From an uncultured archaeon (GTDB taxonomy: Archaea; Thermoplasmatota; Penumbrarchaeia; JASLWR01), in NCBI GenBank assembly GCA_964342815.1, contig CAYFHS010000008.1, forward strand, positions 1-64,000: a DNA stretch of 64,000 nt, read 5' to 3'. Shown here piece after piece: positions 37,685 to 44,492 of the stretch; position 1 is the first letter of the stretch, and the number at the start of each line of letters is the position of its first letter. The notes under the pieces were generated by a model, which saw nothing but the letters and a program-made list of their open reading frames with translations, made no database searches and was not told where the DNA came from. The position numbers were made by a program, and so were the translations under genes.

Positions 37685-38596
37685 TCAGGTTCGTGCTCCC
37701 ATTAACATTTCCATCAACTGAGTCGGGGAAAGGTTTGGATTGTCAAGTCGTATCTTTCTTACGAATTCTTCCATCTCACCGTAGTCTTCTCTCCCTGAGA
37801 TCACACGTTCATTGGCTCCATTGCTGCCCAACATGTTCAAAATCACTTCCATATCCGCTTTTGAGGCTTCCTGCAAATATTTCAATTCCTCTTGTTCCAT
37901 CACAAGTTTACGGGAGTTCTTATCTATTGCGCCTACTACATGATGGTGTCCGCTTATCTCGGTGTAATGGCCGCCTGGCTCAATTATGATCTTTTTTTCG
38001 AAGCGGCCCATATCACCTGTCTTTGTTTTTTCTGATGATTTTTGGGCTTCTTTTGCCAGGGCAAACTCTCCTATCTCAAGGTACAGCTCGCTTGCTTTCG
38101 CATAAAAACCATATTCCATACAGTCATCGGCACGTCTCTTGATCCGATCGTGATCCGCTTGTTCCCGGGAACTCAAAGCCTCCATTATTATCTCAGTATC
38201 TCCTACTGTAAGAGTGCATTTTACAGGCAGTGGAATTGATTTGCTTCCCTTGAACTCAACGAATCCCGGAAGGAGCTTGCCATCAATGAAGGTCCCGTTG
38301 CTGCTGCCCATGTCCTGGATGTACAACTTATTCTGGTTCTCGAATATTCTGAAATGACAACGTTCACCATGGAGTCGTGTGATAGCTTTATCACCACTGG
38401 AAATGCATACTTTCTTCTGCCCTTTGCACATGTAGTGAAACCTACCCCTATGCCGCCCGAAAATGGTGTTATTCACCATTATCTCGTGGGAATTTCCATC
38501 CTGCATGGTAAATCGGATCTTTCTGATATCAGCACCACCTTGTACCGTAATAATATCCGGAAACCAACCGGATACTATACCTTTTGTAAGTTTCAT
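37685..38596 (-). CDS. FHA-domain protein
   Basis: FGR...TRLH..CHF...YIQDMGSSNGTFIDG FHA signature; then a short helical segment ASELYLEIGEFALAK. Confidence 0.85.
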   Translation of the reverse strand: MKLTKGIVSGWFPDIITVQGGADIRKIRFTMQDGNSHEIMVNNTIFGRHRGRFHYMCKGQKKVCISSGDKAITRLHGERCHFRIFENQNKLYIQDMGSSNGTFIDGKLLPGFVEFKGSKSIPLPVKCTLTVGDTEIIMEALSSREQADHDRIKRRADDCMEYGFYAKASELYLEIGEFALAKEAQKSSEKTKTGDMGRFEKKIIIEPGGHYTEISGHHHVVGAIDKNSRKLVMEQEELKYLQEASKADMEVILNMLGSNGANERVISGREDYGEMEEFVRKIRLDNPNLSPTQLMEMLMGART

Positions 38597-38688
38597 CCGC
38601 TATTATATGAATGAACTGACATATATTTCAAAGTTTTTCGATTATGATCGATCCAGAATTATTTGAATTGTTTATATGGAAAAGGTTA

Positions 38689-43012: not shown

Positions 43013-43013
43013 C

Positions 43014-44492
43014 TCAGATCATCTCCTTGTACATTTTCATCCTGGCCTTGAACCTGTTCCTGAGTGTCAAAATGTCATTTCTTAAAGGGCTCGCAAGCTG
43101 GGCAATTAGATCGGATTTGCCGGAAAGTATACAGCCGCGGATCAGAACGGTCCTTTTGCATAGTTCGTTGATCCCGTCAAAGATCTTCTCGTACATGGTG
43201 GCGATCGGTTTGTACTTTCCTATATCGATCCCTCCTACCATAGAGCCGGACTCAATCTCATCCAGCGCCCCTTCCACTGAGGCTTGTATTTCACCTATAA
43301 ACAGAGTCAATTCGTCAGAAATTTTCTTCACCTTCTTGTAATTCATGGAATCGTTCTTTTCATAGAGTTCTTCGAGGTTGAAGAATAATTTATCTTTTAC
43401 TTTGGTGATCTCAAGGAGTACCCTGTCCCGGAAGTTCCTGTCCGAGAACATGAAGTTCATGTTGGCCATTGCTGTTTTCCGTTTCTTCTCCATGGCTTTC
43501 ATGTAGCAGTCGTAGGCTTTTCGGTATTCACCGCTTAGATAGAGATTATTTCCCAGGCGGAGGTAGATGTCTTCCTCCATTTTGAGATCGCTGTAAAGGG
43601 AATCCACCTCTTCGTATTTCATGGCAATTTCAGACTCAGAAAGACACTCTTCCATGTATGCCGTTTCAAGATCGTTATCGAGGTCCAGCCCGATACCGAA
43701 TCCAAGGATTGCGTCCGAGAGAAGATCTTTCCAGTCGTCTTTGCTTAGCTCCTGGGCATTTATGTTCATGATGGAATCAGCGGTGGTTATCTTTACGTCA
43801 CCTCCTGCAGACACCACATTGCTGCGGGTCATGGCACTGTCGCTTACCGCTGTCTCCGTTTTACCGAGATTCCCATCATCCAGCTTATCCATAAGCTCCG
43901 AAACGTCATCAGCCATGCTCTCGGTCCTCGAAAGTATCTCATGAATATCCTTTTCCATTCTCGCCAGGTGAGACTGGAGTTCGTCAAATTTATCATCCCA
44001 TCCTAACCCTGAGAAAACCGCCCCGATCTCGTTGGTAATATCTTCGACCTTGAGAACATTTGTATCCTTAGATTCCTTCATGGACCGGACGATTTCAGAC
44101 GCAAGCGTATCGGGCTCTATGGCGGCCTTTAAAGACTGCACGAATCGACGGTCCTCACTGCCCATCTGCCTGTAATTCACCATCATACCCTGTATCTGCC
44201 GGGTCATTTCCAGCAGTCCCTGACCGGTATCGTCAAGTTTTTTAGTGTCCGAGACCATTGCTTCCTTAACCTCATCAGCCCTTTGATTGATCAGTTCAAC
44301 GATTTCTTCGTTGGTCACCCCTACGATAGTTTCAAGGAATCTGCTGAGTTTTGTATCCTTACCCTTGTTCTTTTCGTTTAGGTAGCGGACTGCTTTCTTT
44401 GCACTGAAAGTGAAGGTCTTCTCGAAAGCCAGTTTCGAAAATCCCCTGAGTACGACCCCACCAAGGGCTACAGCTGCACCGATACCGAACAT
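43014..44492 (-). CDS. Hypothetical protein: hydrophobic Gly/Ala-rich N-terminus, coiled coil, TPR-like motif, helical C-terminus
   Basis: MFGIGAAVALGGVVL; LGNNLYLSGEYRKAYDCYMKA (TPR-like); stop 1 nt before the SPFH ATG; ATG 44492 (track TTG 44513). Confidence 0.7.
   Translation of the reverse strand: MFGIGAAVALGGVVLRGFSKLAFEKTFTFSAKKAVRYLNEKNKGKDTKLSRFLETIVGVTNEEIVELINQRADEVKEAMVSDTKKLDDTGQGLLEMTRQIQGMMVNYRQMGSEDRRFVQSLKAAIEPDTLASEIVRSMKESKDTNVLKVEDITNEIGAVFSGLGWDDKFDELQSHLARMEKDIHEILSRTESMADDVSELMDKLDDGNLGKTETAVSDSAMTRSNVVSAGGDVKITTADSIMNINAQELSKDDWKDLLSDAILGFGIGLDLDNDLETAYMEECLSESEIAMKYEEVDSLYSDLKMEEDIYLRLGNNLYLSGEYRKAYDCYMKAMEKKRKTAMANMNFMFSDRNFRDRVLLEITKVKDKLFFNLEELYEKNDSMNYKKVKKISDELTLFIGEIQASVEGALDEIESGSMVGGIDIGKYKPIATMYEKIFDGINELCKRTVLIRGCILSGKSDLIAQLASPLRNDILTLRNRFKARMKMYKEMI

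Follow-up and report, generated by a model that had tools for sequence, protein, structure and literature searches.

Four adjacent genes of a marine Thermoplasmatota archaeon raise the question of whether an SPFH-type membrane scaffold can be tied, through its gene neighbourhood, to a receptor kinase and a phosphothreonine reader. The genes, here called g1 to g4, occupy positions 37685–44492 of a 64,000-nucleotide (nt) stretch of contig CAYFHS010000008.1 (assembly GCA_964342815.1), which was analysed whole and is referred to below as the window. A first-pass annotation of this DNA had proposed that they encode a complete module of coiled-coil partner, scaffold, kinase and reader. Our results, which are genomic throughout, point to g1 and g2, together with receptor kinases and an FHA protein, as a candidate for an undescribed membrane signalling module. 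More specifically, we read the locus as an SPFH scaffold beneath the membrane that is connected to Ser/Thr phospho-signalling, and we hold this reading at a probability of about 0.5. The locus joins two units, the g1–g2 pair and the receptor kinase with its FHA protein (g3 and g4). The reading is favoured by kinase linkage in four of seven lineages, by a rare FHA orthologue that always lies in g1 clusters, and by the intact catalytic residues of g3.

43014–44492, minus strand: g1, 492-amino-acid (aa) all-helical partner protein, start placed by orthologue alignment
41627–43012, minus strand: g2, 461-aa SPFH-fold protein without a transmembrane (TM) helix
38689–41574, minus strand: g3, single-pass receptor Ser/Thr kinase
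37685–38596, minus strand: g4, FHA-domain protein, FHA domain at about aa 31–140

The four genes were confirmed as co-oriented minus-strand open reading frames (ORFs), and the gaps of 1, about 52 and 92 nt given in the first-pass annotation were reproduced, with alternatives that depend on the start codons chosen. The ATG of g2 starts 1 nt past the g1 stop, g2 and g3 are separated by 25 or 52 nt, and g3 and g4 by 92 or 182 nt. The longest ORF for g1 covers 43014–44513, and orthologues place its true start at the ATG at 44492. The likely start of g3 is the ATG at 41574 (961 aa, close to the 962 aa of an orthologue), with an alternative GTG start at 41601. The start of g4 may instead be Met31 (38506), judging from orthologues.

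The g1–g2 dyad

Both partners of the dyad are rare, and they are found in the same places. The g2 family comprises 12 clusters and the g1 family 10 among 5.8 billion proteins, and at E<1e-30 the family defined by the N-terminal domain of g2 has 7 clusters in a set of 1.84 billion representatives. A survey of 401 genomes from the phylum placed full-length g2 in the window's own family alone (genomes G000, G077 and G170), and the distribution of g1 is identical. The g1 stop and g2 start lie 0–4 nt apart in all 11 loci in which the two were both seen, even where identity has fallen to 34–43%. The two genes form an obligate, dedicated pair that is probably translationally coupled. The strongest argument we have that the two act together is that both partners have been co-duplicated. 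The C-terminal ~140 aa of g1 are homologous to P0061, a helical protein of ~200 aa (29% identity, E 3e-9), whose gene stands immediately before that of an SPFH/coiled-coil/zinc-ribbon protein with 25% identity to g2 (E 5e-18). The two form a mini pair outside the window, on contig C43 of G000 (loci L015 and L039):

34194–34802, minus strand: P0061, 202 aa
32726–34180, minus strand: SPFH/coiled-coil/zinc-ribbon protein, 484 aa

The adjacency recurs in three further contigs (G077:C85, G083:C10 and G170:C21), and by these homologies g1–g2 is an enlarged paralogue of an older, smaller dyad. Relatives of P0061 are 80–96% identical over many metagenome contigs and are thus far more conserved than g1. 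A complex prediction for full-length g1 and g2, each with its own alignment, scored 0.00 and weighs neither way.

The protein g2 is built from a conserved N-terminal domain (aa 1–255), a continuous helix of ~130 residues and a SHOCT-like bihelical tail. Band_7 scores 22.0 bits in Pfam, under the cutoff of 23.6; despite this, the predicted structure confirms the SPFH fold, and the SPFH call of the first-pass annotation is upheld. The AlphaFold model (pLDDT 71) gave Foldseek top matches that were all SPFH proteins (HflK/C, stomatin, prohibitin, erlin, flotillin and vault; E 8e-7 to 1e-3), and the SPFH core maps to 42233–42655. In the model the long helix runs without interruption over aa 246–373, a region whose length differs across orthologues. 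No hydrophobic segment or TM anchor was found in g2, where the best 19-residue Kyte-Doolittle window reaches 0.96. The SHOCT domain also claimed for g2 fared less clearly. The protein itself gives no match to SHOCT (PF09851) at E<=0.1, while its orthologues match below threshold (24.3–24.7 bits, cutoff 27). Their tails align with that of g2, which is modelled as two short helices, and we infer from the alignment that the g2 tail is SHOCT-like. Other orthologues have the tail swapped for zinc ribbons or a GYF_2 domain.

The partner g1 has a short hydrophobic N-terminus, a low-confidence centre that holds a conserved motif, one TPR unit and a C-terminal helical bundle, in a predicted model that is all-helical (pLDDT 60). 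The hydrophobic N-terminus that had been proposed is present, if short and borderline (best 15-residue hydropathy window 2.21). The proposed TPR-like motif survives as a single unit at about aa 315–343 (P0001 numbering): profile searches match consensus TPR proteins through that unit alone, TPR_1 scores 18.5 bits in Pfam against a cutoff of 27.8, and neither search shows tandem 34-residue units. The protein belongs to no Pfam or NCBIfam family, and Foldseek against the PDB returned no match at E<=0.001. A wide structure search returned generic helical-bundle matches only (Z<=9.2), over residues 280–492 with the N-terminal half barely covered, and for helical bundles we treat Z below about 13 as non-specific.

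The conserved motif of g1, T-x-I-x-D-S-V-M-x-R-S-N-V-x-x-A-G-G-D-V, maps to window positions 43830–43880 (about aa 212–233 of the 492-aa form). Its Asp, two Ser and Arg are invariant, and it sits in the lowest-confidence, probably disordered centre of the protein. The motif may be a site of phosphorylation or of interaction.

The nearest described analogue of the dyad is YdjI of the Bacillus subtilis pspA-ydjGHI operon, a TM-less SPFH/zinc-ribbon protein that recruits a PspA/ESCRT-III-type protein to damaged membrane (PMC8581546; PMC11237479). Like YdjI, g2 is a TM-less SPFH protein with a long coiled coil and a small C-terminal adaptor (a zinc ribbon in many relatives, SHOCT-like here), is encoded right after the gene for a helical partner, and is presumed to lie at the inner membrane face. 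This layout, shared by g2 and its relatives, together with partners that are all-helical and of ~200 aa in the mini pair, suggests an alternative in which the locus is a membrane-stress or repair module, g1 is the helical remodelling partner and the kinase only modulates. We regard that alternative as quite improbable. Neither g1 nor the mini partner gives any PspA_IM30 or Snf7 signal in Pfam at E up to 10 or in a profile search of the PDB. Fold searches return no PspA-like match, in a comparison that hardly covers the N-terminal half of g1 and uses a low-confidence model of it, and YdjG- or YdjH-like genes are not recognised nearby. These searches did not show either partner to be PspA-like, and the best match of the PDB profile search, a BAG domain at E 0.011, was treated as noise. 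Further differences from the B. subtilis system are that Band_7_1 of Pfam misses g2, that g2 carries an extra conserved N-terminal domain (NWWKS...IPIGPTERAVFIK), and that YdjI has no described link to Hanks kinases and FHA.

The dyad also resembles SPFH-NfeD operons and SPFH cages (HflK/C-FtsH, QmcA-YbbJ, stomatin, prohibitin and flotillin) in its core fold and long wall helix, and SPFH-NfeD operons in that two genes supply an SPFH protein and the partner dedicated to it. It differs in that g1 is all-helical and is not NfeD: the NfeD membrane and OB-fold domains are absent from g1 by Pfam, NCBIfam and the all-helical model. The N-terminal TM helix or hairpin that anchors those proteins is also absent from g2.

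The receptor kinase and the FHA protein

The description of g3 as a single-pass Hanks kinase with an extracellular Kelch sensor is upheld by Pfam, by hydropathy and by inspection of its motifs. Pkinase scores 147.5 bits (cutoff 31.7) and Kelch_1 scores 161 bits over five stretches, which lie between an N-terminal signal or anchor (aa 7–34) and the one TM helix (aa 534–562). The ectodomain combines the Kelch beta-propeller with four acidic DxDxDG repeats, and beyond the TM helix come a helical juxtamembrane region and the Hanks domain (38722–39480). The VALK, alphaC Glu (E756), HLDLKPAN, DWG and APE motifs are present and all catalytic residues are kept. The enzyme is a non-RD kinase, with HLD in the window and in both orthologues where 19/23 other aligned kinase domains have HRD.

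In the g3 orthologue of G077 (locus L023, G077:C133, 6025–8934, minus strand) an in-frame stop just past the TM helix (...KRKNEKNRW*KKTKAM...) cuts the kinase off from the rest of the protein, ectodomain and TM helix. The stop is a genuine nonsense mutation or else a mistake in a metagenome-assembled genome of ~3.8x coverage. A helical motif that seemed by eye to be shared between the juxtamembrane region of g3 and the post-FHA helix of g4 gave no BLASTP match and was dropped.

Genome G000 encodes about 21 Hanks kinases in 4.35 Mb (~0.5% of genes), mostly from one paralogous expansion and all with DWG in place of DFG. Two of them (C48:138-914 and C33:8720-9490), in which the catalytic Lys and Asp are missing (VSIN, HRN), resemble pseudokinases in sequence. 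The same genome holds at least 9 FGE-sulfatase domains, two of which (C6 and C14) lie within ~1 kb of a same-strand kinase domain and may be fused to it.

In g4 the FHA domain scores 34.6 bits against a Pfam cutoff of 20.7 and is followed by a conserved helical segment and a C-terminal tail, with no TM helix. Residues G47-R48 and N100-G101 are invariant in four orthologues. Among 37 genomes of the class a g4 orthologue occurs in three (G000, G077 and G170), and in 3/3 it lies in a g1 cluster; G000 has 2 FHA genes in total. The FHA protein of locus L019 is the G170 orthologue (48% identity over 171 aa).

That G170 protein (L019:6573-7649, plus strand) has a Cys-rich C-terminus with a sub-threshold FYVE match (E 9.6e-5, 22.9 against 27.8 bits). 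It also carries, at aa 204–263, a module of ~50–60 aa that recurs at 45–63% identity in a 480/516-aa protein encoded upstream of the g1/g2 position (L021:4219-5769, aa 430–493) and in a STAND-FGE protein (L005:2267-5434, aa 511–563), and is absent from g4 of the window. The module may be a common docking element.

Gene neighbourhoods and a possible link between the two units

If the two units work together, kinases and FHA proteins should be found beside g1 and g2 elsewhere. Seven distinct context lineages were found:

Lineage 1, window group (window, L002/L003, G077): g1, g2, Kelch kinase, FHA
Lineage 2, P0015, L020 and L022: g1, g2, convergent membrane-protein gene (57% identical), cobO; no kinase or FHA
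Lineage 3, L018 and P0013 contigs: g1, g2; no kinase
Lineage 4, L001: g1, g2, kinase, kinase
Lineage 5, L004: g1, g2, FGE-sulfatase protein, SHOCT protein, zinc-ribbon protein, kinase
Lineage 6, L019 (contig C131 of G170): g1, zinc-ribbon protein, two kinases, FHA, kinase-FGE fusion; no g2, and no g2 remnant by tblastn
Lineage 7, L005/L021: g2 with a GYF tail, STAND-FGE NTPase; no g1

Same-strand Hanks kinases lie downstream of g1/g2 in 4/7 lineages (the window group, L001, L004 and L019), a count that, the lineages being related, overstates independence; the sample is also small. The chance of a kinase among four downstream genes is roughly estimated at ~2%, from ~21 kinases per 4.35 Mb. The first-pass annotation had made its module depend on co-occurrence elsewhere, and this was borne out in part. 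The four-gene order is kept in L002/L003 and G077, and distant loci have Hanks kinases, one of them with the orthologous FHA gene, while kinase and FHA are missing from the nearest syntenic relatives. The idea of a complete, fixed module was not sustained: the conserved core is g1 and g2 only, and the neighbouring kinases come from different subclades.

Several observations weigh against a functional link between the two units. Lineage 2 comprises the nearest syntenic relatives, at the same site, and like lineage 3 it is free of kinases. Because these relatives and another lineage have no kinase or FHA gene, the gene order indicates that the link is facultative and the kinase/FHA unit accessory. 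In a tree of kinase domains, from which the partial matches on C49, C13 and C53 were left out (coverage below 220 aa), the g1/g2-linked kinases are spread over at least 3 subclades of one lineage-specific expansion. A common origin for them is neither shown nor excluded by this tree, in which at least 2 changes are required and a polytomy is present. No PP2C phosphatase was found in G000, which is 89% complete, in a search confined to the families PF13672 and PF00481. The proposed role of g4 as a phosphothreonine reader is also less than certain, for all that its FHA domain is well over threshold: the SxxH position reads [E/D]-R-C-H in all four orthologues (Pfam register), with Glu or Asp at the canonical Ser. 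Judged by this substitution, phosphothreonine binding is plausible and not assured. The invariant T73-R74, 5 residues upstream of the SxxH position, might stand in for the Ser.

The spacers bear on the same point, as they leave room for separate transcription:

44493–44605, minus strand: spacer upstream of g1, past the mobB stop; AT-rich, with a TTTATA box ~25 nt before the g1 ATG
41575–41626, minus strand: g2–g3 spacer, with TATA-like AATAATTATAA and a T7 run (41592–41598)

Read from the sequence alone, the first is likely the promoter of the g1–g2 unit and the second may hold an internal terminator and/or promoter. The g3–g4 spacer is likewise AT-rich, and with AT-rich spacers, TATA-like boxes and the T7 run, separate transcription of the downstream genes is possible.

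An alternative is that two unrelated units happen to be adjacent, namely a housekeeping-type SPFH pair and an independent kinase/FHA cassette inserted at its 3′ end in this genus. In the syntenic relatives g1–g2 abuts the convergent membrane-protein gene and cobO with the cassette absent, the spacers have promoter- and terminator-like signals, and ~21 paralogous kinases with shuffled sensor domains imply that kinases move. We nevertheless consider this explanation rather unlikely. Kinases stand next to g1/g2 in three further lineages, and outside this genus the rare FHA orthologue was found in one genus only, again in a g1 cluster, which is hard to attribute to chance when kinases make up ~0.5% of genes and a genome has 2 FHA genes. 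In the g1 tree, clade A comprises the window and kinase-free loci, and clade B comprises L001, L004 and L019, all kinase-linked. The presence of neighbouring kinases from several subclades means that the linkage was gained repeatedly, or is old and has been reshuffled, and either history fits a functional tie.

The genes that flank the locus are of housekeeping type: mobB, an EndoQ-like TIGR00375 gene and a JAB-domain gene upstream, and a convergent 329-aa multi-pass membrane protein, cobO and acyl-CoA mutase downstream. The TIGR00375/EndoQ-like metallohydrolase (window 45306–46565, minus strand) and a 624-aa protein with a C-terminal JAB/MPN+ domain and weak PADLOC JAB matches (window 46940–48814, minus strand) are both conserved with the locus in L002/L003. 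No tie of either to the g1–g4 module was found.

Some neighbourhoods of the relatives hold further genes. The STAND NTPase of lineage 7 (1055 aa, L005:2267-5434, plus strand) and a Hanks kinase of lineage 6 (852 aa, L019:7728-10286, plus strand) share an 88%-identical C-terminal portion of 500 aa that ends in an FGE-sulfatase domain; by this identity it is a recent swap of a sensor module between two signalling heads. Three unannotated genes (~594, 380–608 and 480–516 aa) are conserved upstream of the g1/g2 position in L001:2603-7684 (plus strand) and L021:4219-8741 (minus strand), the third of them is partly present in L019, and the trio has no homologue in G000. The 516-aa protein has bactofilin-like beta-helical repeats and occupies the place of g1 in L021. 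Two tandem FtsZ/CetZ-like genes stand directly upstream of a kinase-free g1–g2 locus of G170 (L022:257-2177, minus strand), and a ParE/PhD toxin-antitoxin pair (L018:311-875, minus strand) lies ~9 kb upstream of g1–g2 in a stretch that also has a second mobB.

A possible role in conflict or defence

The first-pass annotation had also suggested a conflict or defence role. On this view invasion would be signalled by the variable sensors (Kelch kinase, FGE-sulfatase kinases, STAND-FGE NTPase), and g1–g2 would be a membrane-acting effector or platform, with an abortive-infection-like outcome. Downstream partners do vary in the manner of conflict systems, and the 88%-identical FGE-sulfatase module has been carried on both NTPase and kinase. 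Further features in keeping with such a role are the swappable g2 tails (SHOCT, zinc ribbons, GYF_2), a patchy, rare distribution with several paralogues per genome, and a middling structural match of the g1 C-terminal bundle to CC-NLR and MLKL-type four-helix bundles (Z 6–9). The last of these falls below the Z of about 13 that we consider specific. PADLOC matches the kinase with its PD-T4-6, mad6, Stk2 and MkoA models, but these matches are confined to the generic kinase domain (aa ~703–969), and g1, g2, g4 and the conserved neighbours have none; nothing beyond them was found in favour of the suggestion. The locus has no recognisable effector such as a nuclease or protease. Synteny with mobB, cobO and acyl-CoA mutase is conserved across genera at ~47–50% identity, which fits vertical descent better than a mobile island. 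Overall, a conflict system seems improbable. A bolder form of the idea, in which g1–g2 would be the shared output platform of an archaeal immune-like surveillance with interchangeable sensors that act through FHA-read phosphorylation on an SPFH dome and on a helical-bundle partner by which the membrane is remodelled or permeabilised, has a slender chance of being correct; its kinase-gated executioner logic may be likened to RIPK3-MLKL and to CC-NLR resistosomes.

A proposed model for the scaffold and the kinase

In the signalling model that we favour, g2 would be a peripheral, TM-less SPFH protein whose long helix, by analogy with SPFH proteins of solved structure, drives its assembly into a ring or dome at the cytoplasmic membrane face. 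The short hydrophobic N-terminus of g1 would help to tether the g1–g2 assembly, and the SHOCT-like tail of g2 may contribute. The Kelch propeller and acidic DxDxDG repeats of g3 would sense the outside while its non-RD Hanks domain signals inside, such that an external cue activates the kinase. Phospho-sites of g3, or sites placed by g3 on g1 or g2, would then recruit g4, the presumed reader of phosphothreonine marks made by g3. The outcome would be the coupling of surface sensing to assembly or client-loading of the SPFH platform. What the analysis shows is the gene order, the domains and folds, the rarity of the families, the strict pairing of g1 with g2 and the recurring kinase/FHA neighbourhood; the physical interactions among g1–g4, the direction of signalling and its output are inferred.

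Membrane Ser/Thr kinase genes beside FHA genes have precedents in ST1565-ST0829 of S. tokodaii, ArnC/D-ArnA/B of Sulfolobus and mycobacterial PknB-FhaA/FhaB (PMC5007285). The combination of FHA with a zinc finger in the L019 orthologue of g4 (the sub-threshold FYVE match) is also reminiscent of Sulfolobus ArnA. The present locus differs from these pairs in the Kelch and DxDxDG ectodomain and HLD loop of g3, in having an SPFH pair as neighbours, in the lack of an adjacent phosphatase or vWA partner, and in that the canonical SxxH Ser is not evident in g4.

The concept of an SPFH scaffold that organises a membrane kinase is familiar from flotillin-assisted signalling, as with FloT/FloA and KinC in B. 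subtilis, and from eukaryotic flotillin and stomatin platforms that work with receptor kinases. In those cases the kinase is a histidine kinase or the genes are unlinked; the connection suggested here is a gene-neighbourhood link to Hanks kinases in an archaeon. Our literature search found no paper that combines SPFH, FHA domain, threonine kinase and operon, and the sole literature found that ties SHOCT to Band_7_1 was the SHOCT paper. The parts of the locus are all of known kinds, and it is the dyad families and the wiring that are new.

Implications

SPFH proteins are universal membrane organisers whose archaeal clients are mostly unknown, and Ser/Thr phospho-signalling is barely charted in Euryarchaeota-type lineages. 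The locus defines two unannotated families, g1 and the N-terminal domain of g2, in an obligate dyad with an older paralogous dyad. If the link to the kinases is not real, the g1–g2 and mini-pair dyads still deserve family definitions. Through its gene neighbourhood the locus appears to offer a concrete link from an SPFH platform to receptor-type Hanks kinases and an FHA protein. If that link is real, this would be, as far as we have found, the first SPFH/Ser-Thr-kinase/FHA module defined by gene neighbourhood, and it would provide a handle on what the ~20 receptor-like kinases of large-genome marine Thermoplasmatota sense and control.

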